Notes: generated from the sequence alone by a model not told the origin. A stretch of DNA of 64,000 nt from Chloroflexota bacterium (GCA_030447245.1 JAUJPG010000021.1:16842-80841), one strand, 5' to 3'. Positions 1 through 62,994 are shown, counted from the stretch's first letter. A program made the numbers and translations.

Positions 1-966
1 CCCGGAGCCCGCGTCGTCGACGATGACCTCGAGGCTTCCGTCAGGCAGGCGGCGGATGCCTCGCACGGTGGAGATGTCCCGGATGACTCCGAGCGCCCTT
101 CGGCCGAGCTCAGGTCCGACAACCCTCACCAACTCGCCCCCCATCGCCTTGCGCCGGACCTCGTCCGGCGTGCCGTTCGCCACTAAACGACCCTCCTTGA
201 GCACGACAATCGCGTCACAGTACTCGGCTTCCGTGACATATTGGGTGGTGACGATGAGCGTGCGGCCCTCGTCGCGAAGCTCGCGGAACCGCTCCCAGAA
301 CTTTGCGCGCAAGACCGGGTCGATCCCGGCGGTCGGCTCGTCTAGGAAAATGATCTCCGGGCTGTGGATCAGCGTCGCGGCAAGCCCCAGGCGGCGCTGC
401 ATGCCACCACTGAGCTCGCTGGCGGTCCGCTTGCGCGCGTCCCACAGTTCGACGAAGTCCAACGCGGTGCGCACGCGACGGCCGCGCTTGAACCAGTTCA
501 TCCCATAGACCGAGGCCGCGAAATTCAAGTTCTCCAGGACTGACAGCTCGGGAAACAGCGCGAAGAGCTGCGGGAGGTAACCCATTCCCTCACGATCACG
601 GCGGCGGAACTTGTGCGGCTCGCGGCCGAGGACGCGCATCTCGCCGCTCGTCGGGCGAATGACGCCGAGCATCATCCGCATCGCCGTGGTCTTGCCGCTG
701 CCGCTTGGGCCGATGACCCCGAATATCGACCCACGCGGGATGTCGAACGTCACCTCGCTCACGACGTCCTTGTCCCCGAACTGCTTGCCGACGCCGCGCG
801 CGGTCACCGCCGCGTCGCCATCCAGCGCCACGGCCGGCGCCTGCCGCGGCTTCCCTGGCTGGTCGACCGCATCCGCGATCTCGGCGGTTGCTGCCCGCTC
901 GACAATCTCCACGGTCGCGCGATCTGACGGATGGGAGGTCGCCGATGGCCTGTTCTCGAGGGACAT
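1..966 (-). CDS. ABC transporter ATP-binding protein (3' end runs off the left window edge)
   Basis: Not in the ORF track because there is no stop inside the window. Reverse-strand translation from ATG (964-966) reads MSLENRPS... and stays open to position 1. It contains GVIGPSGSGKTTAMRMM (Walker A), LSGGMQRRLGLAA (ABC signature), IIFLDEPTAGID (Walker B) and TLIVTTQY (H-loop region). Confidence 0.85.
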   Translation of the reverse strand, partial: MSLENRPSATSHPSDRATVEIVERAATAEIADAVDQPGKPRQAPAVALDGDAAVTARGVGKQFGDKDVVSEVTFDIPRGSIFGVIGPSGSGKTTAMRMMLGVIRPTSGEMRVLGREPHKFRRRDREGMGYLPQLFALFPELSVLENLNFAASVYGMNWFKRGRRVRTALDFVELWDARKRTASELSGGMQRRLGLAATLIHSPEIIFLDEPTAGIDPVLRAKFWERFRELRDEGRTLIVTTQYVTEAEYCDAIVVLKEGRLVANGTPDEVRRKAMGGELVRVVGPELGRRALGVIRDISTVRGIRRLPDGSLEVIVDDAGSG

Positions 967-1308
967 GGTCAACTTTCTCCGGACGCTTCGTTGACCCGCC
1001 CTGGCTAGGAGAGCGGCGAGGCTTATCGGCGGGAACGCTGTCGCGGGGGAAGCAAGAGACGTGCCACTCGGGGCGAGTCGAGGAGGCTGGGGGACCACGG
1101 CCACCGGCGTCGACCGGCGCCGTGAAGCTGCTCGGTATAATCCGCGCCGGCATGCGCCCTCTGGGTTCACTTGTGACGGGGCGCCGAGAGGCCCTCGAAC
1201 CCGGACGAATGATGGTCTGACGCGCCATGTGGCGCGTTCGGGGAAGGCCCTGTTGAGAGCGTCGGTGGTGCCGACGCGACGCACTGCGCTGAGGAGCGAG
1301 GAGATCCC

Positions 1309-4300
1309 ATGGCGGAAACCGCGGCGGCCATCGACACTCTCGATCAGCGCCAGCTGCTCACGGCGCTGCGGGCAGCGCGCAAGGGCGACTTCAGCGTCCG
1401 CCTGCCGACAAGCCTGACCGGCATGGCCGGTGAGATCGCCGAGACGTTCAACGACGTCGTCGAGCTCAATCAACGGACCTCCGTTGAGCTCAAACGCATC
1501 AGCGCCGCTGTCGGCCGTGACGGCCGGATCGGCCAGCGCGCAACCCTTGGTGCCGTCAGCGGCTCCTGGGCCGGCAACGTCGACTGCGTCAACCTGATGA
1601 TCGACGACCTCACACAGCCAACGGCCGAGGTCAGCCGGGTCCTCGGAGCCGTAGCCAAGGGCGACCTCAACCAGCGTATGACGCTAGACATCGATGGCCG
1701 CCCGCTCAAGGGTGAGTTCCTGCGTTCGAGCAAGATCGTCAACACCATGGTCGACCAGTTGAACGGGTTCGCATCGGAAGTCACCCGAGTGGCTCGTGAG
1801 GTCGGGACCGACGGCAAGCTTGGCGGCCAGGCCGACGTGAAGGGCGTATCCGGCACCTGGAAGGACCTGACCGACAGCGTCAACTCCATGGCGCGCAACC
1901 TGACCGAGCAGGTCCGCAACATCGCCGATGTGACCACGGCCGTGGCAAACGGCGACCTGTCACGCAAGATCACCGCTGACGCACGCGGGGAGATCCTGGA
2001 GCTGAAGAACACTATCAATATCATGGTCGACCAGCTCAACGGGTTCGCCTCCGAGGTCACCAGAGTCGCGCGCGAAGTGGGTACCGAAGGCAAGCTCGGT
2101 GGTCAGGCCGACGTGCAGGGGGTGTCCGGCACCTGGAAGGACCTGACCGACAGCGTCAACTTCATGGCGAGCAACCTGACCGGCCAGGTGCGGAACATCG
2201 CCGACGTGACGACGGCCGTGGCCAACGGCGACCTGTCCAGGAAGATCACCGCCGATGCTCAAGGCGAGATCCTGGAGCTCAAGAGCACGATCAACGTCAT
2301 GGTCGACCAGCTCAATGCGTTCGCGTCGGAGGTGACCCGCGTAGCCCGTGAGGTGGGCACGGAAGGCAAGCTGGGTGGCCAGGCTGACGTCCGCGACGTC
2401 TCGGGCACCTGGAAGGACCTGACCGACAGCGTCAACTCGATGGCCGGCAACCTGACCGGTCAGGTGCGCAACATCGCCGAGGTCACGACCGCGGTCGCCA
2501 ACGGCGACCTGTCGCGCAAGATCACCGCCGATGCTCAAGGCGAGATCCTCGAGCTCAAGAGCACGGTCAACACCATGGTCGACCAGCTCAACGGATTCGC
2601 TTCTGAGGTCACCCGCGTAGCTCGTGAGGTCGGCACCGAAGGCAAGCTGGGTGGCCAGGCCGCGGTCCGCGGGGTGGCCGGAACGTGGAAGGACCTGACC
2701 GACAGCGTCAACTTCATGGCCAGCAACCTGACCGGTCAGGTCCGCAACATCGCCACGGTCACGACGGCCGTCGCCAATGGCGACCTGTCCAGGAAGATCA
2801 CCGCCGACGCCCAGGGCGAGATCCTCGAGCTCAAGGACACCATCAACATCATGGTCGACCAGCTCAACGCGTTCGCTTCGGAGGTCACCAGGGTGGCCCG
2901 CGAGGTGGGGACGGAGGGCAAGCTGGGAGGCCAGGCCCAGGTGCGGGGTGTCGGCGGGACCTGGAAGGACCTGACCGACAGCGTCAACTCGATGGCTGGC
3001 AACCTGACCGAGCAGGTGCGCGGCATTGCGCGCGTCGTGACGGCCGTCGCCAACGGTCAGTTGAACCGCAAGCTGACCGTCGAGGCCAAGGGCGAAATCG
3101 CCGAGCTGGCCGAGACGATCAACAGCATGATCGACACCCTGGCAACGTTCGCCGAGCAGGTTACCGGCGTGGCCCGCGAGGTGGGCATCGAGGGGAAGCT
3201 TGGCGGTCAGGCCAGCGTGCCGGGCGCGGCTGGCACCTGGCGCGACTTGACCGACAACGTCAACCAGCTGGCGGCGAACCTGACCACGCAGGTGCGCGCC
3301 ATCGGCGAGGTGGCCACGGCAGTCACTCAGGGCGACCTGTCGCGGACGATCCAGGTGGACGCCCAGGGCGAGCTGGAGGAGCTCAAGGACAACGTCAACG
3401 AGATGATCCGCAACCTGCGGGACACCACCCAGCGGAACACCGAGCAGGATTGGCTGAAGACGAACCTGGCCCGCTTCACCGGCATGCTCCAGGGGCAGAA
3501 GGATCTCCAGACCGTCGGCCGGCTGATCCTGTCCGAGCTGGCGCCGCTCGTCGGCGTCCAGCACGGCGTTTTCTACTTGAACGAGCCGGCCAACGGCGAA
3601 CCATTGCTGAAGCTGCTGGCAAGCTACGCCTACCGGGAGCGCAAGCACCTGGCGAAAGAGTTCCGGATCGGCGAGGGGCTGGTCGGCCAGTGTGCGTACG
3701 AGAAGGAGCGGATCCTGCTGGCTAACGTCCCGGATGACTACGTCCAGGTCAACTCCGGACTGGGCGAGGCCACGCCGCGCAACGTCGTCGTCCTGCCGGT
3801 CCTGTTCGAGGGCGAGATCATGGCGGTTGTCGAGCTGGCCTCGCTGGACCGCTTCAACCCGATCCACCTGTCGTTCCTGGATCAGCTCACCGAGAGCATC
3901 GGCATCGTGCTCAACACCGTGGGCGCGAACATCCGCACCGAAGAGCTGCTCAAGCAATCACAGGCGCTAACCTCGGAGCTTCAGGAGCAGCAGGAGGAGC
4001 TGCAGCAGACGAACGAGGAGCTCGAGGAGAAGGCCCGCCTCTTGTCCGAGCAGAACGCCGAGGTCGAGCGCCGCCGGCGCGAGATCGACGATGCCCGCCT
4101 GGCGCTCGAGCAGAAGGCGGAGCAGCTGGCGCTCACGTCGACCTACAAGTCCCAGTTCCTGGCGAACATGTCTCACGAGCTCCGCACGCCGCTGAACAGC
4201 CTGCTGATCCTGTCTCAGCAGCTGGCCGACAACCCGGACGGCAATCTGACCGGCAAGCAGGTCGAGTTTGCACGGACGATCCGCGAAGCCGGCGACGACC

Positions 4301-6327
4301 TGCTGACCTTGATCAACGACATCCTGGACCTGTCCAAGATCGAGTCGGGCACGACGTCCATCGACATCGGCCAGGTCCAGTTCGCCGACATCGCCGAGGA
4401 CCAGGACCGGCTGTTCCGCCAGCTGGCGATTCAGAAGGCGCTGGACTTCAGGATCGACCTGGATCCAAACCTGCCGCGCGTGATCAGCACAGACGCAACG
4501 CGGCTGCAGCAGGTGCTCAAGAATCTCTTGTCGAACGCCTTCAAGTTCACCGACACCGGGGGTGTCACGCTCCGCATCGCGCCGGCCCTGCGTGGCTGGA
4601 GCGCCGAGCACGAAGTGCTCAACCGCGCTCGAATGGTCGTTGCTTTCGCGGTCGCCGACAGCGGCGTCGGCATTCCGCCGGATAAGCAGGCGGTGATCTT
4701 CGAAGCGTTCCAGCAGGCCGACATGCAGACCAGCCGCCGCTTCGGGGGTACCGGCCTCGGGCTGTCGATCAGCCGCGAGATCGCTCGCCTGCTCGGCGGT
4801 GAGATCACGCTGACGAGTCGACCCGGGGAAGGCAGCACCTTCACCCTGTACCTGCCGATCACCTACGCCGCGATTGGCGGACGGAACGGCCAGCGCAGCG
4901 CGTCGATCGGCGCGGCCGACGCCTGGCCGAGCGACGACCCGAGGCGCAGTAGTGACAGCGAACGCTGGCGCGCTGGCCTTGGCTATGCCTCGCGCGGCCC
5001 AAGCGTGACGCATGAGCCGAATGTCATGACCAGCACGGGAACCACCAACGTCGGCGCCGAACTGGCCGCCCCCGACTCCCCAGACGCGGCCGAACGTGCC
5101 ACCGCGCCGGCCACGAGTGAAGTGGAGGACGACCGCGCCGCGATCAAGGAGCGCGACCGAGTGATGCTGGTCGTGGAGGACGACGTCGCCTTCGCTCGAA
5201 TCCTGCTGGAAACCGCCCGCGAGCGGGGCTTCAAGGGCATCGTCGCCCTGGACGGCAATGAGGCCCTCACCCTGGCTCGGCGGCATAAGCCCGACGCCAT
5301 TACGCTGGACATGCAGCTACCGGAGCTCGACGGCTGGAAGGTGCTGGATCGTCTCAAGCACGATCCGCTCACCCGCCACGTGCCGGTCCATGTCATCTCG
5401 GCCGGCGACCAGCGCCAGCGCGCGCTCGAGATCGGCGCGATCGCCCACCTCCGCAAGCCGGTCAGCAAGGAAGCCCTCGTCGAGGCGTTTGACAGCTTGT
5501 CGAGCTTCGTCGACCGTCGTTCGAAGAAGCTGCTGGTCGTTGAGGACGATGACGCTCAACGGGCGGCGATCGTCGAGCTGATCGGCAACGGCGACGTCGA
5601 GACGACGGCGGTCCGTAATGGCGTTGAGGCGTTGTCCGCGCTGGAACGGGAGCGGTTCGATTGCGTGGTGATCGACCTCGGGTTGTCCGACATGACCGGG
5701 TTGGAGCTGATCCGCAAGATCAAGGACGGCGACGCCCTCTCGCCCTGCCCGATCATCGTCTACACCGGCAAAGACCTGACTCGGCAGGAGGACGCTGAGC
5801 TTCGCAAACTCGCCCAGACGATCATCGTCAAGGACGCCAGATCACCGGAGCGTCTGCTCGACGAGACGGCGCTGTTCCTGCACCGGGTCGAGGCGCGGCT
5901 GCCGGAAGCCAAGCAGCGGATCCTGCGCGAGCTGCACCGGTCCGACCCGATTCTCGAGGGCAAGAAGGTGTTGATCGTCGACGACGACATGCGCAACATC
6001 TTCGCGCTGACCAGCGCCCTGGAGCGATACAAGATGGAGGTGTCGTACGCCGAGAACGGGCGCGACGGCATCGAGGCGCTGCGTACCGGCGCCGGGGCCG
6101 AGGTCGTCCTCATGGATGTGATGATGCCGGAGATGGATGGGTTCGAGTCCATCCGCGCCATCCGCGCCATCCCGCGTTTCGCCGACTTGCCGATCATCGC
6201 GCTGACCGCGAAGGCGATGAAGGGCGATCGGGAGAAATGCATCGAGGCTGGAGCGTCCGACTACATCACCAAGCCAGTCAACGTCGACCAGCTGCTGTCG
6301 CTAATGCGTGTCTGGCTGTACCGGTAG
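1309..6327 (+). CDS. Hybrid sensor histidine kinase: poly-HAMP array, GAF, coiled coil, HisKA, HATPase_c and three receiver domains
   Basis: 1672-aa ORF in the track. Seven 92-aa di-HAMP-like units are followed by a GAF-like segment ([19 protein letters not shown]) and a Q/E-rich coiled coil. The kinase core has H-box [14 protein letters not shown] plus [16 protein letters not shown] and GGTGLGLSI. Three REC domains follow ([18 protein letters not shown]; [18 protein letters not shown]; [19 protein letters not shown]). Confidence 0.9.
1471..3418 (+). repeat. In-frame tandem array, 7 units of about 276 bp (92 aa), encoding the poly-HAMP region
   Basis: The unit start codon (NGF/NAF/ATF) recurs at 1762, 2038, 2314, 2590, 2866 and 3142, an exact 276-bp period. 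A more diverged first unit starts near 1471. Consensus: [83 protein letters not shown]. Confidence 0.9.
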
Positions 6328-6372
6328 CGGTGCGCACCGGACCCCGATCGCCGATCGGCGAGAAGGCAGGCT

Positions 6373-7209
6373 GTGACTACACCGACGCGGGACAATGCGC
6401 TCGAGGACATGGAGATCGAGCTGCTGCTCGAGGGGATCCACCGCCACTACGGCTACGACTTTCGCAACTACGCCCTGTCGTCGCTGCGGCGCCGAATCCG
6501 CGACCGAGTGCAGGCGGAGCAGCTTCGCACGGTCTCTGGCCTCAAGGAGAAGGTCCTCCACGACCCGGCGTGCATGGAGCGACTGCTGCTCAGCTTGTCG
6601 GTCAACGTCAGCGCCATGTTCCGCGACCCCGGCCTCTACCGTGCGATCCGGTCCGCCGTCGTGCCGCTACTTCGGACGTATCCGTTCATCCGAATCTGGC
6701 ACGCCGGCTGCTCGACCGGCGAGGAAGTCTATTCGATGGCGATCGTGCTCCAGGAGGAGGGGCTGTACGACCGCTGCCGGCTGTACGCGACAGACATGAA
6801 CGAGGCGGTCCTCCGCACGGCACGCGCGGGCCTGTTCCCACTGGCAGCCATGAAGGCCTACACCGCCAACTACCTCCAGGCGGCCGGTACTGCCGAGTTC
6901 TCGCGCTACTACACCGTCAGTCACGACCGTGCCATGTTCAATCCAGCGCTCAAGAAGAACGTGGTCTTCGCTCAGCACAACCTGGCAATGGACGGCCCGT
7001 TCAACGACTTCCACCTCATCGTGTGTCGAAACGTGATGATCTACTTCGACAAGACGCTGCGGGCGCGAGTCCACGCTTTGTTCCTGGAGAGCCTCGTCCG
7101 GTTTGGCTTCCTCTGTCTCGGCAGCAAGGAGACAATCAGGCACACGCACGTTGAGACTGAGTACGCCGCGTTCGACGCGCGCGAAAAGATTTACCGAAGA
7201 ATCCGGTAG
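6373..7209 (+). CDS. cheR: CheR-type protein-glutamate O-methyltransferase
   Basis: 278 aa with a GTG start. It has the CheR N-terminal helical part (ELLLEGIHRHYGYDFRNYALSSLRRRI) and a SAM-methyltransferase core (IRIWHAGCSTGEEVYSMAI, LIVCRNVMIYFD). Confidence 0.9.
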   Translation: MTTPTRDNALEDMEIELLLEGIHRHYGYDFRNYALSSLRRRIRDRVQAEQLRTVSGLKEKVLHDPACMERLLLSLSVNVSAMFRDPGLYRAIRSAVVPLLRTYPFIRIWHAGCSTGEEVYSMAIVLQEEGLYDRCRLYATDMNEAVLRTARAGLFPLAAMKAYTANYLQAAGTAEFSRYYTVSHDRAMFNPALKKNVVFAQHNLAMDGPFNDFHLIVCRNVMIYFDKTLRARVHALFLESLVRFGFLCLGSKETIRHTHVETEYAAFDAREKIYRRIR

Positions 7210-7241
7210 TCGCGTGCTGGCGCGGCAGGGACAGAACGCTG

Positions 7242-7847
7242 ATGGCCTACCAACTGGTCGTGGTCGGTACGTCTCTGGGCGGTTTCGAGGCGCTCACGGT
7301 CCTCCTGGGCGGGCTACCGGCGAATTTTCCCTTGCCGTTGGCGGTCGTTCAGCACCGCGGCTCGAGCGTCGAAGAGCCGAGCTCTGGGGTCGACCTCCCG
7401 CTCCTGCTCCAGCGTCACGCCGAGCTGACGATCGCCGACGCTGAGGACAAGGATGCATTGCTGCCCGGCCGGGTCTACCTCGCGCCGGTCGGCTACCATC
7501 TCCTCGTCGAGGAGGGCAGCGTGGCACTGTCCACGGATCGGCCGGTCTGGCACGCGCGTCCGTCGATCGACGTCCTTTTCGAGTCGGCCGCGGATGTCTA
7601 CGGCGCAGCAACGATCGGTCTGGCGTTGACCGGGTCGAGCCAGGACGGGGCCGCTGGCCTGGCGCGGATCAAGCGCCAGGGCGGGCTGGCCATCGTGCAG
7701 CAGCCGGCGACCTCCGCTAGCCGCGTATTGCCAGACGCCGCGCTCAAGGGCACCGAAGTGGATTGGACCGTCCCACTGGGCGAGATCGCGCCACTGCTCC
7801 GTAGACTGCTTGGAAGCCCCGCGAGCGAGAGCCCAACGGGGTTGTGA
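7242..7847 (+). CDS. cheB: CheB-type protein-glutamate methylesterase, catalytic domain only (no receiver domain)
   Basis: 201 aa. Motifs seen: LVVVGTSLGGFEAL, LAVVQHRG, LTGSSQDGAAGL. The length leaves no room for the N-terminal REC domain of canonical CheB. Confidence 0.85.
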   Translation: MAYQLVVVGTSLGGFEALTVLLGGLPANFPLPLAVVQHRGSSVEEPSSGVDLPLLLQRHAELTIADAEDKDALLPGRVYLAPVGYHLLVEEGSVALSTDRPVWHARPSIDVLFESAADVYGAATIGLALTGSSQDGAAGLARIKRQGGLAIVQQPATSASRVLPDAALKGTEVDWTVPLGEIAPLLRRLLGSPASESPTGL

Positions 7848-9453
7848 GGTGCTAGACGCGCTGCCCCCGACCGAGATCCGCTCCGTTTCCTTGCCGCCGG
7901 TCAACATCCTGCTCGTCGACGACGAGCCAAAGAACCTGACGGCGCTCGACGCCGTGCTGGCCGCGCCAGATCGTAACCTGGTCAACGCCACCGGAGGCGC
8001 GGAAGCGCTCAGACACCTGCTCCATGACGATTTTGCTGTCATCCTGCTCGACGTCCACATGCCGGGCATGGACGGCTTTGAGACGGCCGAGCTCATTCGC
8101 GGCCGCGAGCGGTCGCGGGACACTCCGATCATCTTTCTGACCGCCGCCACGCGCGGCGAGCCCTTCATCTCGCGCGGCTACTCGGTGGGCGCCGTCGACT
8201 ACATCGTCAAGCCGTTCGACCCGGACATCCTGCGTTCGAAGGTCGCCGTGTTCGTCGAGCTGTTCAGCAAGACCGAGCAGGTCAAACGTCACGCCGAGGA
8301 GCAGGCGCGCTTCCTAGAGGAGCGAGCGCGTTTCCTGGAGGAGCGGGCTGCACGTACCGAGGCTGAGGCCGCCCGCGACCGTTTGCAGCAAGTCGTCGAC
8401 GTCTTCCCGGAGGCGATCACGATCGCCGACGCCGACGGCCGGATCGTGTTGAGCAATGCGACCGCCGGCGAGATCATGGGGCGTTTGCCGGGGCAAGTCG
8501 ACCACGCCGCGACGGACGGCGTCGACCTGCTGAAGCTGGACGGCTCGCCCTACCCGCCGGATGAGGTGCCGCTGGCGCGCGTGGTGCTGCGCGGTAAGGT
8601 CGTGCGGGGCGAACAGCTCCTGATCGTCAACGCGCTCACCGGCGAGCACCGCCCGGTCCTGGTCAACGGCGCCCCGCTTCGCGACGTCGGTGGGGCCGTT
8701 GTCGGCGCGGTGCTGGTCTTCCAGGACATCTCGCCGATCAAGGATCTGGAGCGGCAGAAAGACGAGTTCCTGGCCGCCACGTCGCACGACCTCAAGAGTC
8801 CGCTCACGGCGATCAAGATGCGCGCCCAGCTCCTCCAGCGACGGGCCGCCGGTCTCGAGTCCCCCGAGGCTGAAGCGATCGCCGAAGGACTCGTCGCAAT
8901 CGACAAGGCCACGTCGCGGCTGACGTCGACGATCGACGCGCTGCTCGACGTCGCATGCCTCCAGATGGACCGCCCGCTCGATCTCGATCGGGGGCCGACG
9001 AACCTGGGGGAGGTTGCACGCCAGGTGGCGGCCGACCTACAAGCGGGGACCGAGCGCCACGAGATCCGCGTCGTCGGTGAGGATCAGCTCGTCGGCAACT
9101 GGGACCGCGCGCGGCTCGAGCGGGTCATCACCAACCTGATCGGGAACGCCATCAAGTACAGTCCGAACGGCGGGCCGGTCACGCTCACGCTGGAGCGTGA
9201 CGGTGAAGACTGGGGCACCCTCCACGTGTGCGATGAGGGTCTTGGCATTCCATCCACTGAGCTGCCGCGAATCTTCGAGCGATTCTACCGCGGCAGCAAC
9301 GTCGCGACGAAGATCGAGGGCACCGGTATCGGCCTGGCGGGCGCCTATCAGATCGTCGCGCAGCACGGCGGAACTCTCACCGCCGAGAGCCGAGAGGGCG
9401 AGGGCAGCACCTTCACCCTGCGCCTCCCGCTGGAGCCCACTGACACAACGTAG
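7810..9453 (+). CDS. Response-regulator receiver / PAS / histidine kinase fusion
   Basis: The track ORF starts at TTG 7810. GTG at 7849, just after the cheB stop, is an equally plausible start. Domains: REC (ILLVDDEPKNL..ILLDVHMPGMDG), a coiled coil with duplicated ARFLEER, PAS-like (FPEAITIADADGRIVLSNATAGEIMG), H-box FLAATSHDLKSPLTAI, and HATPase (NLIGNAIKYSPNGG, GTGIGLAGA). Confidence 0.85.
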   Translation: MEAPRARAQRGCEVLDALPPTEIRSVSLPPVNILLVDDEPKNLTALDAVLAAPDRNLVNATGGAEALRHLLHDDFAVILLDVHMPGMDGFETAELIRGRERSRDTPIIFLTAATRGEPFISRGYSVGAVDYIVKPFDPDILRSKVAVFVELFSKTEQVKRHAEEQARFLEERARFLEERAARTEAEAARDRLQQVVDVFPEAITIADADGRIVLSNATAGEIMGRLPGQVDHAATDGVDLLKLDGSPYPPDEVPLARVVLRGKVVRGEQLLIVNALTGEHRPVLVNGAPLRDVGGAVVGAVLVFQDISPIKDLERQKDEFLAATSHDLKSPLTAIKMRAQLLQRRAAGLESPEAEAIAEGLVAIDKATSRLTSTIDALLDVACLQMDRPLDLDRGPTNLGEVARQVAADLQAGTERHEIRVVGEDQLVGNWDRARLERVITNLIGNAIKYSPNGGPVTLTLERDGEDWGTLHVCDEGLGIPSTELPRIFERFYRGSNVATKIEGTGIGLAGAYQIVAQHGGTLTAESREGEGSTFTLRLPLEPTDTT

Positions 9454-9629
9454 CTACCCGAGCTGTCGACGCCCACTGATAGCGGCGTGAGTTTGACGCA
9501 ACGTGACGGTGATGCCCGGCACGAAGCTCGTCGGGCATGCTTCCATCGTCGGGCGTCGGTCAAGCGTGGACGGGTATCCTGCCTTGCGTACTGATTGGAT
9601 CGCGGCGGGCCGAGAACCCGGGGGATGTT

Positions 9630-10559
9630 ATGACTGACAGCACCTTCGACCGCGCGGCGCTGGCCGGACTGGGGGTGATCGACGTCCACGTCCACGTCGG
9701 CCCGGAGCTGGTCCGGCGCAAGTACGACGTGCTGACCCTCGCCGCCGAGCTGCGGGCGGCGAATCTGGGCGCGGTCCTCAAGAACCACTTCATTCCGACG
9801 ACGGCCTGGACGTCCCTCGCTCGCGCCCGCGGCGCGGTCGACCTATACGGCAGCGTGGTGCTCAATCACAGCGTCGGCGGGCTGAACCCAGCTGCCATCC
9901 GCGCCGCCATCGGCGCCAACAAGGCCGACCCGGCCAGTGTCGCGCCCGATCACCAGCGGATCATGGTCTGGATGCCCTCGATCCATGCCGCCGCCCATCT
10001 CGCCTACGTTGGCCGTGACCTGCTACCTGAGTGGGGCTGCGCCGAACAGTACTCCCTGCCGGCTGACCAGATCGACGGAATCAGAGTCCTCGAACGCGGC
10101 GAGCTATCCGAGGCAGCCGTGGCAATCCTCGAGGCCGTCCGCGACGAGGATCTCGCGCTGGCTACCTGCCACGTTTCCCGTGACGAGGTCTTCGCTCTGG
10201 TCGAGCGCGCCTCAGCCATGGGCATCCAGCGAATCGTAGTCACCCACCCGTTCTACCAGGTGACCGACCTCTCGATCGACGAGCAGTGCCAGCTTGCGCG
10301 CTACCCCGGCGTCTACCTGGAGCACAGCTACGCCGTCCACGTCATGGATCATATCGTCCTCGACCGCTACCTCCAGGCAATCGAGGCCGTCGGCCCAGAG
10401 CACACGATCTTGTCTACCGACCTCGGCCAGGTTGCCAACCCGTCCATCGCCGACGGCTGGTGCATCTTCATCAACCTGCTGATCCAGGCCGGCCTCCCGC
10501 TCGAGCATATCCGCACGATGGCCGCGACGAATCCGAGGCGGGTGCTGGGCGACCGCTAG
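9630..10559 (+). CDS. Metal-dependent hydrolase, amidohydrolase/TIM-barrel-like (function unknown)
   Basis: The track ORF 9537-10559 has an internal ATG at 9630 preceded by GGGGGA, which is the likelier start (MTDSTFDRAAL). It carries the N-terminal HxH motif VIDVHVHVGP typical of amidohydrolase-fold enzymes. The family name was not verified. Confidence 0.55.
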   Translation: MTDSTFDRAALAGLGVIDVHVHVGPELVRRKYDVLTLAAELRAANLGAVLKNHFIPTTAWTSLARARGAVDLYGSVVLNHSVGGLNPAAIRAAIGANKADPASVAPDHQRIMVWMPSIHAAAHLAYVGRDLLPEWGCAEQYSLPADQIDGIRVLERGELSEAAVAILEAVRDEDLALATCHVSRDEVFALVERASAMGIQRIVVTHPFYQVTDLSIDEQCQLARYPGVYLEHSYAVHVMDHIVLDRYLQAIEAVGPEHTILSTDLGQVANPSIADGWCIFINLLIQAGLPLEHIRTMAATNPRRVLGDR

Positions 10560-21469: not shown

Positions 21470-22255
21470 ATGACCGCGGTGCCCCAGGAGATCAGAGCAG
21501 AGCCGCTTCCGATGGCTGCCGAGTCCAGGCGTCGCGACGCCTGGTGGGCCGAGCCGCTCGCGGTGGTCGTGGTCCTGACGAGCTTCGGCCTGTACGCGCT
21601 GTGGGCGGCGCTGCAGAACGGGAACTACTACGCCGCGCCGTACCTGTCGCCGTTCTACTCGCCCTGCATCTCGGTCAACTGCGTGCACGTCACCCTCCCC
21701 CTCATCGGCTCCTGGTGGACTCTGTCGCCGGCCTTGCTCATCCTGGGGATCCCGCTCGGCTTCCGGGTGACCTGCTACTACTACCGCAAGGCCTACTACC
21801 GGGCCTTTTTCTGGTCGCCGCCAGCCTGCGCCATCCCGGACGCGCGCCGGGGCTACTCCGGCGAGACGCGCTTCCCGTTCGTCCTCCAGAACTCCCACCG
21901 CTACTTCTTTTGGCTCTCGCTGGTGGTGCTGGCCTTTCTCTGGTGGGATGCGCTGCTGGCGTTCCGCTTTCCAACGGGCGTCGGCATCGGCCTGGGCACG
22001 GTCGTGCTCGTTGTGAACGCGACGTTGCTCACGCTGTACTCGTTGTCGTGCCATTCCTGCCGCTACCTGTGCGGCGGCTACCTCGACTCCTTCAAGGACG
22101 CGCCCATCCGCTACCGCCTGTGGCGGTGGACGAACCGCCTGAACGCGCGCCACCCCCACTTTGCCTGGATCAGCCTGTTCGGGGTGGCGCTGGCCGACCT
22201 GTACGTTCGGCTGGTCGCGATGGGCGTGATCACGGACCCCAGGATCGTGTTCTGA
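21470..22255 (+). CDS. Succinate dehydrogenase/fumarate reductase membrane-anchor subunit (assigned by position and topology)
   Basis: 261 aa with about 5-6 hydrophobic helices. Its stop overlaps the sdhA start (TGATG). The order anchor-flavoprotein-FeS resembles actinobacterial Sdh1-type operons. Confidence 0.65.
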   Translation: MTAVPQEIRAEPLPMAAESRRRDAWWAEPLAVVVVLTSFGLYALWAALQNGNYYAAPYLSPFYSPCISVNCVHVTLPLIGSWWTLSPALLILGIPLGFRVTCYYYRKAYYRAFFWSPPACAIPDARRGYSGETRFPFVLQNSHRYFFWLSLVVLAFLWWDALLAFRFPTGVGIGLGTVVLVVNATLLTLYSLSCHSCRYLCGGYLDSFKDAPIRYRLWRWTNRLNARHPHFAWISLFGVALADLYVRLVAMGVITDPRIVF

Positions 22256-54349: not shown

Positions 54350-55615
54350 GCCAGCAAGAATGTCCGCTTGGGTCCGCCCTGGGGAGGCGGGCAGATGCGT
54401 CACAGCAGCGATGGTTGGACGGCGCGTTGCGGTGGTCAGGCTGGTTCGGGAGGGCTGCTGAGCCAAGGGGCATCCCGAGTGGAGTTGGGCCTGCCGGCGA
54501 GGTCCGTCGATTGGTGCCGCCTGGCGGTCGGCGAGAGGAAGGGCGCGATGGCGGCGGCATCCGGCGCCGAATCGGAGACGATGGTGCGGGCGGCGGCGCG
54601 GCGGTCCAGGCGGCGACCCGCGCTGGAGCGCGCAAGATCTGCGCTGGAGACTGGGCGCCGCTGCCGAGGGGCCGCTGGCTCGGACGTTGGCCGACGCATG
54701 TCGCGGCGGCGCGGCGGTTCGAGGCCGCGGGCCGCTGGAGCTGGTCCAGTGGACACCACCAGCTGCTGGCTCGCGGGCCGTCGGATGGCCTACGTGATCG
54801 TGCTGCTGGACGACGACTCGCGGGCGATCCTGGCCGGGCGTCACGGCCGACTCGGCTGGCAGAACCAAGGTGCTGGAGCAAGGCGTGGGGCGGTGCCGCC
54901 GCGGGTGGCCGACAAGCTCGCACGGGCGGACGCGTCTATCGTCCCGGCTGGCCGGCAGCGCCGACCCAGCGGGCGCGCGCTCGGCGAGCTGGGTGTGCTG
55001 CGGCCGTGGCAACCCCGCGCCAGAGGGCAAGCTGGGCCTGGAACCGCTGGAGCGTGCTCGCCGACGACGCTCGCGGCGTCGACGCCGCCCTGGGCCTGGG
55101 TCGCGCGGCCATCGCCAGCGCCGGCTGCGCGCGGCACGCCTGGGTGCACGTCCTGGCCTCGGGGCCGCTCGGCGACGTGTGCGCCCTGCGCGAGACCCGC
55201 AAGGTCGCCAAGGACCACACCATCTCGCCGACGGCGTGACCTGGCCCCGCGCTGGTCGACCGGTCCTGGAGCTGGGGGCCGAGACGATCCGCGTCGCCAC
55301 ACCGAGGACGCGGGCGCGGCGCTGCGGGCGGCCGACGACCTGCTCGGTCGGTCGCGCACGTCGAGGCCGCGCGGAGCCGGCTCGAGCCGCCGCCCCAGTG
55401 GACGTCAAGCAGGACGAACGTGCTGGTGGCCGAGGCCGACGGGTGCATGGTCCGACATTCTACGTGGGACGGCTCACCGTTCCATTGGAGGCGCAGGTGG
55501 CTACCTCCGTTGTACCGAATCCACCCCGGCGCCGACCGACGGCGTCTGGTGAAAGTGGCCCTGGTGGCAGCGCCGAGCTACGTCGCGACCCGCCGCTCGG
55601 CCGAGGGGTGTTGAG
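54350..55615 (+). mobile_element. Probable decayed DDE/rve (TniA/TnsB/Mu-like) transposase remnant
   Basis: No intact sensible ORF is present. Across shifted plus-strand frames one reads FEAAG(P)LELVQ, VDTTSCWLAGRRMAYVIVLLDDDSRAILAG (like the PLE.VQ.DHT...W.T...DD.SR.I.G pattern) and a later YRIHPGADRRRLVKV-type tail. This is a motif-level match from memory only. Confidence 0.35.
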
Positions 55616-56552
55616 GCTGGTTGGTCATCGTCGCCGTCGTCGGGCCTGCCGAGGCGGCGCGGCGGGGAGCGCTGGAGGTCGAGCCGCTGGGAGGGCGGCG
55701 TGGTCGGCCGCGGCGTTGGCGGTGATCTGCGCGAGGCGGTTGGTCGCTGGGGGATGGGGCGGCGTGGATCTGGGCGCTGGCCGACGAGGCGGTCGAAGGG
55801 CGCGGGTCGAGGTCCTTGACTTCTCCACCAGGTGCAGGGCCGTCGAACGGGTTGCACCTCCACATCTGCTCGTACAGCGCGCAGCCATGTTCGGCGAGGG
55901 CCCGACGTGGCCGCGACGACCTGGCGGTTGTCGCGGCGCGCAAGGCGGCGAGCTGCTGATCGCCGGCCCCAGAAGCGCACGAGTGGGCGGTCCTGGCGGC
56001 AGCTCGAGGATCGGGCGGCCACCGCGCCAGCACCCCGAAGCCGCCCATCGGTGCTGCGGGTCGAGCGGGTCGCGACTCGACCAGCTGCAACAGTCGCCGA
56101 GCGCCTGGACTACCTCGAAGTGGAGCTCGGCCTGTCCCAGGATCCCGCTGCATCAGGACGATCGTCGGCCGATCGGCTCCTTGCGGGCGATCGTGTCCTG
56201 CCCCAGCAGGTCAGCCGCCGCTGGTCCAGCGTGCTGATGCGGCCGAGTTGGGCGACCAGCTCGTCGGTCAGGACCAGTTCGCCGTGCGCGGTCCGCCGCC
56301 GTCGGCGATGCTCTGCTCGCCTTGCGCGAACGTCATCGAGCCTCCCGCTCGCACCGCCTCGTCGAGCTGCCCGGGTCCAGCCCGCCGACGTCCCGGCGCG
56401 CCACGCGCGTGCTGCCGGACCAGGACTACAAAAGCCGTCCCGCTGAGTCAGACCCAAGTAGCTCGCCTGCATTGATGCACTTGCGCGCTCGGCGATCTAT
56501 CTCTTCGCTGTCGAATCCACCTCTACACTCGCCGATCCGCACGTCGCAAGCC

Positions 56553-56582
56553 TTGACCGAAATCGGGCACCTGCGCTATTCT
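56553..56582 (+). promoter_or_regulatory. Candidate sigma-70-type promoter
   Basis: TTGACC (56553-56558), an 18-nt spacer, then TATTCT (56577-56582), in a locally less GC-rich stretch upstream of the acidic small ORF. Confidence 0.35.
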
Positions 56583-56673
56583 GTGACCATCCCGAGCCCT
56601 GACGCGATGGTGCGTTTGGCGGCGAAGGAATCTGTAGAGGGTGCCGTAGGCGCCCATCGAAAGGAGCGGGGAC

Positions 56674-56775
56674 ATGGAAGAAGGTTCGGAGGGCATGGAG
56701 AGCGAGACTGTGGTGATGGACGAGGGGTTGGACTCAGAATCCGTCGACGTGGATACCACGCAGGAGCCTGAGTAG
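56674..56775 (+). CDS. Candidate small acidic protein, 33 aa
   Basis: AAAGGAG lies 7 nt upstream of the ATG. Sequence: MEEGSEGMESETVVMDEGLDSESVDVDTTQEPE. It is below the ORF-track size cut-off. Codon bias is only moderately coding-like. Confidence 0.3.
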   Translation: MEEGSEGMESETVVMDEGLDSESVDVDTTQEPE

Positions 56776-56899
56776 TCACCGACCATCCCCTGATCTAAAA
56801 TCCTGGATAACGTCGAACGCAAGATGGCCGCGGCAACACGCCGCGGCCAGCTTGCGTCGCGCTGCAGGCCGCACGCTGGCGCAGCCTGATTCAACTCCC

Positions 56900-57889
56900 G
56901 ACAAATGGGTCGCGCGGGGCTGGCTCCCACAGCCCCGCGCACCGCGGGGTTCGGCATCCTCGCCAGGAGCTCTCGACTCGCTTCCAGGAATTCCTCGGCG
57001 CGTTCGACGTGCGGCAGCAAGCCGCAACGCTCCAAGACGCGGAGTTCGGCCCGCTCGTTCAACGCCTCGAGCTCGCGTCCACGCTGCACCGGCATGTCCT
57101 GGGCCTCGGCTCCCCAGACCAGCAGCGTCGGCTGGGACAGCCGCGTGAAGTACGGCTTGAGCGGGTGGTTCAGCCGACCGCTGACGAAGGCCGCCGCGGC
57201 ATAGCGGGCGTTCGGCCTGGTGGGCTGTCGCCCAATGCTGCTCCACCAGCTGGTCGGTGATCTGGGATTTGTCCCAGAACAGCCGACGCAAGAAGTGACG
57301 GATACTTGGTCGTGAGACCAGGGCGTTGAACATCGTCTGCCCCAGGACCGGCAGGCGGAACGCCCAGTAGACGCTCTCGAGTGTCGGGTTCGTGGGGTCT
57401 GGTCGCGTCCCCGCTCGGGCAGATCAAGACAAGCCGCTCGACCAGGTCCCGTCTCCGGACTGCCGCGACCACCGCGCGCCGAGCTGAGCGAGCTGGCGAT
57501 GACCGCCGTGGGCCGACCGATCACCTCGGCGAGGAAATCAGTCACCAGGTCGGCGTACAGCTCGCCGGTGTACTCCATCGCCCGCCGTTCCGACGTGCCG
57601 AACCCAGGCAGGTCGGTGCGTAGACGCTGAAGCGTTCGGCGAGCGGCTCGAAGACGTTGCGCATCTCGTACGACGAGGCCGTCGCGTTCGGGCCGTGGAG
57701 CAGCAGCAGCGGCGGGCCTTCGCCGAGCGTCGTGTAGCGGACCCGCCCCACGCTCCAGTTCCAGTCGTGGGTGCGCCCCAGCAGCGTCGGCGGCAGGTCG
57801 TCCAGCGCCAGCGAGCAGTTCAGCGCGGCGAGCGCGCCGGTCACGGCGGCCTTGCCCGCCAGCAGCTTCAGCAGGGTCCCGCCCTTCAC
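56900..57889 (-). pseudogene. Alpha/beta-fold hydrolase, at least 4 frameshifts
   Basis: GTG at 57889 overlaps the crtI stop (GTGA). Segments lie in different frames: VKGGTLLKLL..RVRYTTLGEGPPLLLLHGPNATASSYEMRNVFEPLAERFSVYAP; DLPGFGTSERRAMEYTGELYADLVTDFLAEVIGRPTAVIASSLSSA; AVRRRDLVERLVLICPSG; MFNALVSRPSIRHFLRRLFWDKSQITDQLVEQHW; FVSGRLNHPLKPYFTRLSQPTLLVWGAEAQDMPV..LERCGLLPHVERAEEF. The 3' end is approximate. Confidence 0.6.
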
Positions 57890-59386
57890 GCGACGACCCT
57901 TCGATCCTGGCCGGCGCTGATGCCCAGGTCCTCGGCGACCAGCCGGCCGGAAATCTTGGCCGAGAGGAGTGTGCCCGGGCAGCCCCGCGCGGGTGGGTGC
58001 GGCGCCGACGAAGTAGAGTCGCTCGACGTCCTCCGAGCGGTTGTGTGGTCAAGTAGGCCGACTGGGTCAGTGTCGGCTCGACCGAAAAGGCGCTCCCAAG
58101 GTGGGCGTTCAGCTCCCTACGGAAGTCGAGCGGCGTGAAGCTGCGCTCGACGCGGATGCTGTCCTGGAAGCCCGCCAGGCGGAAGTCATCTTCGAGGAAG
58201 CGAATGATCTTGTCGCGGAACGGCTTCGCCTCGCGCCTCCAGTCCACCTTCGCGCCAAGGTGGGGGACCGGCGCCAGGACGTACAGGCTCGTGCCGCCGG
58301 GGTGGGGCCATGCTCGGGTCGGTCGTATTCGGCGCGTGGAGGTACAGCGAGAAGTCGTCGGCGAGCACCTTGCGGTCGAAGATGTCGCCGATCAGTCCCC
58401 GTACCGCTCAGACATGATGATCGTGTGGTGGAGTAGCTTGTCGTACTGGCGGTCCAGGCCGAGATAGAGCAGGAAGCACGACATCGAGTGCTTCCGTCGG
58501 CGGACCCGCCGATCGGTGTTCTTGCGCCCGGTGACGCGGTGCAATGAGCCTGGTGTAGGTCCAGACGACGTCGGCATTGCTCACCACGCCGTCGGCCGGG
58601 CCAGCGGCGTCCGTCGACCGCGCGGACGGCGACCGCTCGACCGCCCTCCACCTCGATCTCGGCGGCCTCGGTGCCGCACTCCAGCGTGCCGCCGAGCTCC
58701 TGGAAGCGGCGCACCATCCCTCGATCAGCGCATACGTGCCACCCATCGCGAAGTGGACGCCCCCGAGCCGTTCCAGGTACGGGACGATGCTGTAGATCGC
58801 CGAGGCACGGAACGGATTGCCGCCGATGAACAGCGGGTGGAAGCTGTAGGCCATCCGGAGCGCTTCTTCCTCGAAGAAGCGGCTGACGAAGCCTGTAGAC
58901 CGAACGGTCCGCCCGCAGCGGGCCGGTTCGGGAACGACCTTGAGGAAGTCCGCCCAGCGTAGGAATGGCTGGTGGGCCAGGTCGGAGAACGCCCGCTGAT
59001 AGATCCGACCGCTCGCGGCCATGAAACGCCCGGTAGCCGTCTACGGCCGCGGGGTCAAACTTGGTCAGCTCGCGCCACCATGTGTCGGGATTGCCGCTGT
59101 AGTCGTAGAAACGCCCATCGGCAAAGAAGATCCGATAGAACGGCTCGAGTGGAACCAGGTCGAGGTACTCGCCGCTCCGCCGGCCCGACGCCGCGAACAC
59201 GTCGTCGATCAAGTCGGGCGCGGTGACGATCGATGGTCCCATGTCGAAGGTGAAGCCGCCCTCCTTGAGCTGGTAGGCGCGACCGCCCGGCAGGGTCGTT
59301 TCTCCAGCAGCGTCGTCCATCCCGCGCGCCGCCTGCAAGCGGACCGCCGCGGCCAGGCCGCCGAAGCCGCTGCCGATGATCACCAT
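57886..59386 (-). pseudogene. crtI: Phytoene desaturase (CrtI family), at least 8 frameshifts
   Basis: Fragments lie in three frames: MVIIGSGFGGLAAAVRLQAARG; PGGRAYQLKEGGFTFDMGPSIVTAPDLIDDVF; AASGRIYQRAFSDLAHQPFLRWADFLKVVPE; RMAYSFHPLFIGGNPFRASAIYSIVPYLERLGGVHFAMGGTYALIEG; MVRRFQELGGTLECGTEAAEIEVEGGRAVAVR; ADGVVSNADVVWTY; MSCFLLYLGLDRQYDKLLHHTII; LADDFSLYLHAPNTTDPSMAP; VDWRREAKPFRDKIIRFLED..LGSAFSVEPTLTQSAY; LYFVGAA..TLLSAKISGRLVAEDL. Confidence 0.75.
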
Positions 59387-61866: not shown

Positions 61867-62994
61867 TCAGGGGAGCGTTCCGTTCGAGCGGGCGGCGGCC
61901 AGAGCATTGTAGGCTGGCCGAGGCGAGCCGTCCGGTTCGGTGATGCTCCACCAGTATTGCTCGTTGGCCTGGGTCCAATTCGGGTCGGCGATGTTCCAGA
62001 TGAACATGACGCCCATCCACGGAGACCAGTTCTGCCTGGCGTACTGGTACGCTCGTACGATGTAGTCCGCCTGCTGCTCCTGGGACACCGCGTACCAGGA
62101 GTACTCGGGGTTGATCTGGTCCGTCGTCCAACCAAACTCGAGCAGCCAGGCCTGCTTGCCTCCGTCCCCATACGCCTCCATGATCCCCCGCAGCTGCTCG
62201 ACCCGTCGGAAATAGAAGGAGGGATGCGGGAAGCGCGGATCGGAGTTCAAGGCGGCCTCGGGCGCCGAACCGTACCCTGGTCCGTGCATGCCGATCACAT
62301 CGGAGAAGCTCGCGAGGCCGTCCTCATACAGCCAACTCAGGTAGACGTCGTCGGGCTGGGCCGACCCGTCGTTGGTGCCGGTCGGCGAGAGGCCGGCGCT
62401 GACGACGATCATCGCCGGATCGACCAGCTTGATCATCTGATGGCTCTCGCTCAGCATGTACATGTACTGGGACGCCTGGTTTCGATCGATCACTGCCCCG
62501 CCCCACTCGCGGGTTAGGTTCGGCTCGTTCCAGACCTGGATGGCGTGGATCGTGCCCCGCCCCCTCAACGAGCTTGGACCGTAGCGGCCCGCCATCACCG
62601 ACAAGAAGTCGGCGTAGTCCTCAATGTTGTCCGGCGGTCCATTCTGCGCCGGGACCATCCGGGACCACTCCGGCGAGTGATCGACGCGCGCCATGACCCG
62701 AATGCCGGCCGCGTTGGCGGCCTGGACCGCGATGTCAAGCGAGCTCCAGTCGATGCAGTTCTTGCAGCTTGGCTCGATGCTGCGCCAGGGAATGTCCAGC
62801 CGGAGCCAGCCGAGGCCGGCGCCCTGCATCAGCGCGAGCTGCGTCGGGGCGGACTCCGGATTTCCGAGGACGAATGCCGCGGCTCCGTATTCTGGGCTGC
62901 CAGTGTACAACTGGGCCGACGTACTCGGGGTGCTCGCCGGGAGCAGCCCGGTGACGAGCAGAGCTAGTGCCAGGATCGGCGTGAATCTCCTCAA
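61867..62994 (-). CDS. Secreted glycoside hydrolase, (beta/alpha)8 clan GH-A-like (family not resolved)
   Basis: The track ORF extends to 63102. TTG at 62994 has GGAGG 7 nt upstream and gives the signal peptide (M)RRFTPILALALLVTGLLPASTPSTSAQ. Motifs: WLRLDIPWRSIEP and IHAIQVWNEPNLTREWGG (the NEP acid/base motif typical of clan GH-A). Confidence 0.75.
   Translation of the reverse strand: MRRFTPILALALLVTGLLPASTPSTSAQLYTGSPEYGAAAFVLGNPESAPTQLALMQGAGLGWLRLDIPWRSIEPSCKNCIDWSSLDIAVQAANAAGIRVMARVDHSPEWSRMVPAQNGPPDNIEDYADFLSVMAGRYGPSSLRGRGTIHAIQVWNEPNLTREWGGAVIDRNQASQYMYMLSESHQMIKLVDPAMIVVSAGLSPTGTNDGSAQPDDVYLSWLYEDGLASFSDVIGMHGPGYGSAPEAALNSDPRFPHPSFYFRRVEQLRGIMEAYGDGGKQAWLLEFGWTTDQINPEYSWYAVSQEQQADYIVRAYQYARQNWSPWMGVMFIWNIADPNWTQANEQYWWSITEPDGSPRPAYNALAAARSNGTLP

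Follow-up and report, generated by a model that had tools for sequence, protein, structure and literature searches.

A poly-HAMP hybrid histidine kinase encoded with CheR and a receiver-less CheB in a Chloroflexota bacterium: a probable member of the RsbK/RsbM and CfcABCD family of methylatable kinases

In Bacillus cereus, the hybrid histidine kinase RsbK, whose domains run in the order CHASE3, HAMP, GAF, S-helix (signalling helix), HK, CA and receiver (REC) (PMC4574943), is methylated on the signalling helix between the GAF domain and the phosphorylated histidine by RsbM, a CheR-type enzyme encoded in the same operon (PMC4574943, PMC9912610; see also PMC12848376). In this work, published 2012-2015, methylation of RsbK by RsbM was shown in vitro with 14C-labelled S-adenosylmethionine (14C-SAM), methylation and the C-terminal receiver were found to hold the kinase off, and RsbM was described as an orphan methyltransferase without cognate esterase, activation of σB not being thought to require demethylation (PMC4574943). 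The phospho-His of RsbK is H505. RsbK-like kinases, 127 of them, were counted across 10 phyla, and Table S3 of the same study lists Paenibacillus and several Bacillus species as RsbK homologues (PMC4574943). Here we compare with this system a module of four co-directional genes on the + strand, at positions 1309-9453 of a stretch of 64,000 nucleotides (nt; 64 kb) from a Chloroflexota bacterium (GCA_030447245.1 JAUJPG010000021.1:16842-80841; "the window" is this whole stretch), which encode a hybrid histidine kinase (kinase 1), a CheR, a CheB and a REC-PAS kinase (kinase 2).

A second group of described relatives comes from Pseudomonas. The clusters cfcABCDE of P. putida, BmsA of P. alkylphenolica and 3082-3079 of P. 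brassicacearum have the same order as the window, namely a GAF-containing hybrid kinase that carries three receivers, then CheR, a CheB lacking the receiver, and a REC-kinase. We also recovered this order in P. putida (L071) and other Pseudomonas, the loci compared with the window being L071, L043, L046, L051, L052 and L075. In P. putida, CfcB and CfcC are the proteins CheR3 and CheB3, reported not to be involved in chemotaxis (PMC4951495), and the same gene context was noted for P. brassicacearum 3082-3079 and BmsA (PMC8175716). Beyond this exclusion of CfcB and CfcC from chemotaxis (PMC4951495), we found no role for CfcB, CfcC or CfcD in the literature, and the methylation genes go unmentioned in a 2025 preprint on CfcA/CfcR. 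The original prediction for the window, made from its sequence alone, held that the substrate and logic of such kinase-linked enzymes were uncharacterised, which is contradicted by the RsbK/RsbM work and by the descriptions of the cfcABCDE and BmsA clusters (PMC4951495, PMC8175716). Since a homologous system has been studied by experiment, the module does not represent a new kind. We consider it likely that it belongs with the methylatable hybrid-kinase operons of the RsbK/RsbM and CfcABCD family, as a member with a poly-HAMP input and a CheB, and, on the comparative grounds given below, that its CheR most likely methylates the helix of the sensor kinase and not a chemotaxis receptor.

The likeness to RsbK/RsbM extends from the domain order (GAF, long signalling helix, HisKA/HATPase, C-terminal receiver, then a CheR-type gene, with no methyl-accepting chemotaxis protein (MCP), CheA or CheW) to sequence identity. 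With the CheRs encoded by RsbY/RsbK-like/CheR clusters of Neobacillus, Paenibacillus and Bacillus, a set to which B. cereus RsbM itself does not belong, the window CheR shares 52-60% identity. Among these, two Neobacillus loci (L026, L029) and one of Paenibacillus (L014), found with the window's CheR profile and sharing 54-58% CheR identity, encode a REC-SpoIIE(PP2C) protein, a CHASE3- or 4HB-HAMP-GAF-HisKA-HATPase-REC kinase and CheR, which is the RsbY/RsbK/RsbM arrangement. The CheRs of Pseudomonas are ~49-52% identical to that of the window.

The segment expected to accept the methyl groups is also shared. Aligning 66 orthologous kinases, we found that the stretch from GAF to the phospho-His is a conserved E/Q-rich heptad helix, with Leu at each seventh residue preceded by Glu-Glu, and with a mean top-residue frequency of 0.60; the corresponding values are 0.47 in GAF and 0.57-0.58 in REC1 and REC2. 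The phospho-His, H956 in the window kinase, is invariant (66/66). Counted back from it, E890 is H-66 and E897 is H-59. The Bacillales RsbK-like kinases have Glu at these two offsets as well, in all ten single-REC kinases as the second Glu of consecutive EEL heptads. Glu occupies the E890 position in 58 and the E897 position in 61 of the 66 orthologues, while the E904 position has Glu in 39 and Gln in 16. The best candidate methylation sites are E890 and E897, then E904, each the second residue of an E/x-E-L triplet; this assignment is a prediction from homology rather than a demonstration. The pattern [EQ]EL..[STAV][NT][EQDT][EQ]L occurs in 48 of the 73 kinases found directly upstream of CheR (see below), several of the remaining ones ending at a contig edge, and elsewhere in just 3 of ~9,200 six-frame segments (1.4 million residues), namely one kinase-1 orthologue overlooked by our classifier and two instances of the kinase right after CheB. 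An AlphaFold model of aa 720-1190 (aa, amino acids), built from a 24-sequence alignment with a mean predicted local distance difference test (pLDDT) score of 76, has one unbroken helix at aa 851-974, from the end of GAF to past H956. In the window, a Chloroflexota metagenome-assembled genome (MAG) and Deinococcus, the helix is 35 residues (five heptads) shorter than in most orthologues, including the long form of Pseudomonas.

Table 1. Coordinates of the four genes and of features within kinase 1, in window positions
Feature	Position	Strand	Description
Kinase 1 (hybrid histidine kinase)	1309-6327	+	1672 aa; poly-HAMP, GAF, signalling helix, HisKA, HATPase_c, REC x3; RsbK/CfcA-type core
Poly-HAMP array	1426-3408	+	seven 92-aa repeats, each a HAMP pair (di-HAMP), ~14 HAMP units
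GAF domain	3499-3912	+	aa 731-868; Pfam
Signalling helix (predicted methyl-accepting region)	3934-4143	+	aa 876-945, E/Q-rich, heptad register
Candidate Glu sites	3976-3978 (E890); 3997-3999 (E897); 4018-4020 (E904)	+	heptad-spaced
Kinase core	4147-4860	+	HisKA aa 947-1014, HATPase_c aa 1062-1184; phospho-His H956 = nt 4174-4176
Three receivers	5158-6324	+	starts ~aa 1284, 1406, 1552; phospho-acceptors D1334, D1456, D1603
CheR-type protein-glutamate O-methyltransferase	6373-7209	+	GTG start, 278 aa; RsbM/CheR3 subfamily
Receiver-less CheB-type methylesterase/deamidase	7242-7847	+	201 aa
Kinase 2 (REC, PAS, HisKA, HATPase_c)	7849-9453	+	534 aa from GTG 7849; alternative TTG 7810; equivalent to CfcD

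Both modifying enzymes appear to be intact. Pfam assigns CheR_N and CheR to the first, and alignment with Bacillus subtilis CheR (5FTW) recovers its SAM-binding motifs (IWHAGCSTGEEVYS, ATDMN and CRNVMIYF); CheB matches CheB_methylest alone, and alignment with the solved catalytic domains 3SFT and 6YMZ shows that its catalytic triad is kept (S11, H38, D135). Neither protein resembles a pseudo-enzyme, and a loss of catalytic residues, which would have spoken against the original prediction, was not found. That CheB lacks the regulatory receiver, as had been predicted, is confirmed by the single domain within its 201 aa, and the 32-nt gap ahead of cheB leaves no space for one.

To place the module in a wider context, we scanned with the CheR profile, taking one genome per species, which gave 80 loci (81 with the window), and annotated these on all six-frame segments by domain queries taken from the window. 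The loci come from Thermoanaerobaculia, Gemmatimonadota, Acidobacteriota, cyanobacteria, Bacillales, Myxococcota, Deinococcus, Chloroflexota, Actinomycetota, Bacteroidota, Verrucomicrobiota, Planctomycetota and many Pseudomonadota, including P. putida. A hybrid kinase lies directly upstream of CheR in 73 of the 81 loci; the upstream kinase has GAF in 66, three receivers in 62 and a poly-HAMP input in 14, a receiver-less CheB follows CheR in 60, and the next gene is receiver-first in 57, in 44 of them a REC-kinase. With the same gene order in most of 81 loci from many phyla, the arrangement is far beyond chance. What differs by lineage is the kinase input, which is CHASE3 in P. putida, Flavobacterium, Anabaena, Sphingomonas and Neobacillus, 4HB_MCP in Paenibacillus and Cytobacillus, PAS in a Desulfatiglandales MAG, and poly-HAMP in Deinococcus and the window, on a constant core of GAF, long helix, HisKA/HATPase and REC.

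Several variants of this arrangement were seen. In Bacillales, in Deinococcus (chromosome and 541-kb plasmid) and in a Chloroflexota MAG, the cluster has kinase and CheR without CheB (L007, L014-L032, L036, L045; L031; L035; L082). Alcanivorax (L041, L059) has a separate receiver gene between CheR and CheB, and Bacteroidota have one between kinase and CheR.

These neighbourhoods bear on the possibility that CheR and CheB serve an ordinary chemosensory pathway with its MCP, CheA and CheW genes at other places in the genome, their position between the two kinases being incidental or a matter of cross-talk. Both enzymes have the normal catalytic residues, and of the sequence ahead of the module the window, 64 kb of an 83.7-kb contig, covers only 1.3 kb. 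However, the chemotaxis partners are missing from the window. Seeds for the E. coli Tsr signalling domain, CheW, CheA-P1 and the CheA dimerisation domain, validated by strong Pfam recognition as MCPsignal, CheW, Hpt and H-kinase_dim, gave no phmmer match on any six-frame segment of the 64-kb window, and Pfam on 30 other window open reading frames (ORFs) detected no chemotaxis, flagellar or response-regulator genes. The claim that MCP, CheA and CheW are absent from the module and its flanks thus holds across the 64-kb window, and Pfam finds no MCPsignal domain inside the 1672-aa protein. Comparing CheR neighbourhoods, as suggested alongside the original prediction, revealed the kinase-CheR order described above and no pattern of co-occurrence with mcp, cheA or cheW: an MCP signalling domain turned up once in the CheR-centred loci (L020, 6 kb off on the opposite strand) and once, several kb off, in the 84 kinase-centred loci introduced below, and CheA and CheW had no match in the window or in the 164 related loci of the two samples. 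The cluster is moreover found in Deinococcus, Flavobacterium and cyanobacteria, and the window CheR subfamily holds 45-65% identity across phyla, against ~30% to the solved chemotaxis CheRs (it has more than 8000 relatives at E<1e-10, the 120th best match still being 65% identical). Without a receiver, CheB lacks its coupling to CheA, and the P. putida orthologues were reported to lie outside chemotaxis (PMC4951495). We therefore regard a chemosensory role as improbable, and methylation of the kinase as the better account.

Sampling from the side of the kinase gives a more mixed picture. Poly-HAMP kinases of this type form 8000+ clusters, most of them 2100-2900 aa long, and the window's 1672 aa represent a short version. 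From four look-ups and a metagenome scan we assembled 84 further loci. The closest relatives, 74-79% identical to the window kinase over GAF to CA, have the window gene order plus a fifth gene, or the same order without CheB; the fifth gene is a stand-alone receiver after the REC-PAS kinase (L091, L093, L094 (8886-9329), L100, L101). Where the relatives at 78-79% identity (L091, L093, L094, L100) have the stand-alone receiver, the window (9454-10559) has a DUF6282 gene (9537-10559). As a separate observation, the precomputed Pfam lists of most poly-HAMP homologues (P0121-P0240) include PF26769.1, which did not come up for the window kinase with a Pfam copy that lacks this family.

Several results of this sampling and of the helix analysis weigh against the interpretation preferred here. 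Of the more distant kinase-centred loci, 47 have kinase and CheR without CheB, and 15 have kinase and REC-kinase with neither enzyme, so that the enzymes are an optional accessory of the kinase family; among poly-HAMP forms, CheR is much commoner than CheB. The 15 poly-HAMP kinases without adjacent CheR or CheB still hold much of the Glu-pair helix, and Glu frequency at the candidate offsets is about equal with and without CheR (H-59 and H-52 alike); the loss of Glu pairs in these 15 kinases, which represent about 8 lineages, is a weak trend and evidence neither way. A scan for columns specific to CheR-linked as opposed to CheR-less kinases gave 19 scattered positions and no cluster. The strict MCP consensus [ASTG]2-x2-[EQ]2-x2-[ASTG]2 is absent from kinase 1 and kinase 2, and with zero matches in both it was dropped as a site predictor. 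In the structural model, pLDDT is a modest 49-76 mid-helix, as is usual when a dimeric coiled coil is modelled as a monomer. The B. cereus system functions without an esterase, which leaves a role of CheB here without precedent. Finally, RsbK is reportedly methylated at E439 and E446, equivalent to H-66 and H-59, and the equation of E890 and E897 with these RsbK sites is a tentative one. We also considered whether Gln at the pair positions is limited to CheB-bearing loci, and rejected this, as CheB-less Bacillales and a Chloroflexota locus have Gln as well. Given that Glu pairs persist without CheR, that Gln does not track CheB and that no CheR-specific region exists, the helix is best seen as a trait of the kinase family that is exploited by CheR where CheR is present.

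The persistence of the helix motif in CheR-less kinases would also fit an alternative in which the enzymes act within the module on another target, be it the REC-PAS kinase, a receiver or the poly-HAMP helices. Kinase 2, which consists of REC, PAS, HisKA and HATPase_c by Pfam, shows EE pairs in heptad-like spacing behind its receiver (AEEQARFLEERARFLEERAA). A NEEL-type motif is present, too, in the kinase that follows CheB in two loci (L009, L042), and CheR methylation of the response regulator PhoP has been reported in Salmonella (PMC8546571). Yet orthologues of kinase 2 share no conserved linker behind the receiver, and the fourth gene itself varies across loci, being REC-HK, REC-PAS-HK, REC-HK-REC or apparently REC-GGDEF. 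Poly-HAMP arrays, present in so few of the CheR-linked kinases (14/81), cannot be the family-wide target, and the target mapped in RsbK is the S-helix (PMC4574943). Another target within the module therefore seems unlikely to us, if somewhat less so than a chemosensory role, and the signalling helix of kinase 1 stays the favoured substrate.

Concerning the fourth gene, in Desulfoprunum (L039), Rhodospirillaceae (L044) and Desulfomicrobium (L048) the gene after CheB looks like REC-GGDEF by eye (…DGLTGLFNRR…); a fourth gene of this kind would tie the module to cyclic di-GMP (c-di-GMP), in line with the CfcA/CfcR output. The NCBIfam model NF041880, "response regulator EpsF", matches kinase 2 from end to end, with 330 bits far under the 900-bit cut-off, and this indicates the same architecture and not an equivalog.

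Taking the signalling helix as substrate, a mechanism can be outlined. Kinase 1 would sense via its HAMP array and GAF domain, and the signal would run along one long helix (aa ~851-974) into H956, while the neighbouring CheR would methylate Glu on the exposed face of this helix. Methylation would alter the packing of helix and kinase core on REC3, an effect that holds the kinase off in RsbK, the co-encoded CheB would strip the methyl groups and so make the modification reversible, and phosphate would pass by way of the receivers, the REC-PAS kinase or both to a response regulator whose gene lies outside the module. That CheR methylates this kinase, at which exact sites, that CheB acts on the kinase and that any adaptation results are steps we infer. 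In proposing that methylation and deamidation act directly on the kinase, the original prediction is supported for methylation, through homology (RsbK/RsbM, the CheR identities and the conserved Glu pairs), and not for Gln deamidation, since the predicted sites are already Glu and Gln does not track CheB; the adaptation or memory function that it envisaged is so far conjectural.

In E. coli and Salmonella, removal of the receiver activates the CheB esterase, and a CheB without inhibitory receiver is presumably a constitutively competent demethylase. Alternatively, methylation might be constitutive, a one-way off-lock as proposed for RsbK, with CheB mainly a deamidase or acting on another substrate and with no reversible adaptation. 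The orphan status of RsbM and a σB activation thought to dispense with demethylation (PMC4574943) agree with such a lock, as do the many relatives that have CheR without CheB, in the 47 kinase-centred loci as well as in Bacillales, Deinococcus and the Chloroflexota MAG. It is difficult to reconcile, though, with the retention of a receiver-less, triad-intact CheB next to CheR in most of the CheR-centred loci (60/81), and the effect of receiver removal in the enteric enzymes argues for an active esterase; with sites that are already Glu, a purely deamidating CheB would be without obvious substrate here. A static lock thus appears about as improbable as the chemosensory alternative, and demethylation of the kinase by CheB remains our preferred reading. 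Going one step further, CheB and CheR might each prefer one conformation of the helix, which would make methylation reversible and activity-dependent and provide integral-feedback adaptation without a chemoreceptor array, with the REC-PAS kinase as a second, feedback-setting layer. We put this forward as a tentative proposal that may well prove wrong. If true, it would go past the static "methyl lock" of RsbK, which has no esterase.

Regardless of this proposal, the survey indicates that the textbook chemistry of chemotaxis adaptation is very widely used to tune two-component kinases, with thousands of homologues in about a dozen phyla, and that the form with receiver-less CheB and a second kinase, as in the window and in Pseudomonas cfcABCD, is by far the commonest in the CheR-centred sample. 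The window contributes a poly-HAMP variant, presumably soluble and cytoplasmic, which should purify more easily than CHASE3 forms bound to the membrane, and it names three concrete candidate sites. No new principle is revealed; the novelty would lie in reversible, adaptation-like methylation in the CheB-containing form, if demonstrated.

With respect to gene structure, the coordinates and spacing originally predicted match our ORF listing and reading of the sequence. The gaps measure 45 nt between kinase 1 and CheR and 32 nt between CheR and CheB, and CheB and kinase 2 are separated by 1 nt (GTG 7849) or overlap by 38 nt (TTG 7810). All four ORFs have a third-position G+C (GC3) of 0.82-0.88, as for real genes in this sequence of 68% G+C, and scans for promoters and terminators gave no signal over background. 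In kinase 1, Pfam recognises HAMP/HAMP_2 (HAMP x6, HAMP_2 x7), GAF, HisKA, HATPase_c and 3 Response_reg domains, and confirms the predicted layout of a large kinase with three receivers and a second kinase that is receiver-first; MCPsignal, Hpt, CHASE3 or any other membrane-sensor domain were not among the Pfam domains of kinase 1.

The N-terminus of kinase 1 opens straight into HAMP-like sequence, and the HAMP array occupies the N-terminal ~700 residues, with the landmark G[ST]W at aa 85, 182, 274, 366, 458, 550 and 642. At the DNA level, it is a tandem repeat at 1739-3341 with a period of 276 nt (92 aa), 5.8 copies and 80% matches, and the NCBIfam Aer2 model finds 7 matching stretches in the array. 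The number of HAMP repeats varies widely among relatives, L070 having 14 HAMP hits compared with 6-7 in the window kinase.

At the other end of the protein, D1334, D1456 and D1603 are kept in orthologues, and REC3 is the counterpart of the one REC that RsbK has, an inhibitory one. The Bacillales kinases have a single REC that ends in ...FSLMRVWL, and REC3 of the window kinase shares this ending. The end of REC3, LLSL(M/L)RVWLY(R/K/S) at the C-terminus of kinase 1 (window 6292-6324), hardly varies between phyla among CheR-linked kinases, as seen at this position in 73 loci, and is eroded in many CheR-less relatives, e.g., to RLRLAH or RAHLGVAA. We considered RVWLY as a tether for CheR like the MCP pentapeptide; however, Pseudomonas, with CheR and CheB present, has RVWLP, and the motif lies inside the last receiver helix.

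As for the remainder of the window, there are no receiver domains beyond those of the two kinases and no further copies of CheR or CheB, each being present once, and no SpoIIE/PP2C or sigma-factor genes among the scanned ORFs of the 64 kb. The other genes are metabolic, transport and housekeeping ones, such as an amidase, an ABC peptide transporter, M16 peptidases, a ClpB/ClpC-type Clp ATPase and a UvrD-type helicase, among others. Several sizeable ORFs have no Pfam match (21470-22255, 54870-56237, 56523-58247, 61867-63102, 23-508 and 596-1228), and of these 21470-22255 and 61867-63102 pass a coding-like GC3 filter. Those just upstream of the module, 23-508 (+) and 596-1228 (-), are absent from the GC3-filtered list and therefore may not be real genes.

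RsbK, the best-studied relative, sits in the membrane, takes its input through CHASE3-HAMP and carries a single receiver; in the window kinase no membrane-sensor domain was recognised, and there are ~14 HAMP units and three receivers. RsbM works without a partner esterase, while the window encodes a dedicated CheB, one without receiver. In place of the RsbY-type REC-PP2C and sigma-B genes, not found among the scanned ORFs of the 64 kb, there is a REC-PAS kinase, so that the module belongs to the broader family and is not a sigma-B module. In the Pseudomonas clusters, CfcA has a periplasmic CHASE3 domain, also seen in L071, and is membrane-bound, whereas the window kinase is poly-HAMP with no CHASE3 found. 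The P. putida output regulator CfcR is encoded elsewhere, and the window likewise has no REC-GGDEF-EAL regulator, in agreement with the prediction that the module encodes no output domain, which is correct for this window.

A further point of comparison came from a tblastn search of plasmids with the window CheR, which uncovered CheB-CheR-PAS_10-PAS-kinase(-REC) fusions in Paraburkholderia, Azospirillum (two) and Sinorhizobium (L083:4332-8414, L084:4404-8975, L085:4404-7889, L086:4272-7253), annotated as "chemotaxis protein CheB" with PAS_10; on the CheB-CheR fusions or the NEEL motif we found nothing relevant in the literature. Like the window, the fusions tie a receiver-less CheB and a CheR to a histidine kinase with no MCP, CheA or CheW, and all four have 3-6 consecutive (S/T)NEEL heptads straight after the CheR domain, a coiled coil of (S/T)-N-E-E-L heptads that resembles the window helix and may be a methyl-accepting segment in cis. 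They differ in that the enzymes are fused to the kinase and in that the heptads lie between CheR and PAS_10 instead of between GAF and DHp, and their CheR is only ~28-31% identical to that of the window.

Canonical chemotaxis adaptation uses the same enzyme families with the same catalytic residues, and its substrate is likewise a long coiled coil that bears heptad-spaced Glu pairs, but it has the MCP hairpin, CheA and CheW, all of which are missing from the 64 kb, and the MCP site consensus, which is absent from the two kinases. Chemotaxis CheB has a phospho-regulated receiver whereas the window CheB has none, and the putative substrate helix of the window feeds DHp directly. With regard to the input, Aer2-type transducers, like the window kinase, have concatenated alternating HAMP units in a soluble N-terminal region, and fungal group III hybrid kinases have HAMP repeats of ~90 aa. 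Unlike in these other poly-HAMP proteins, the HAMP array of the window feeds a GAF domain, an S-helix and a kinase core that are linked to CheR and CheB.

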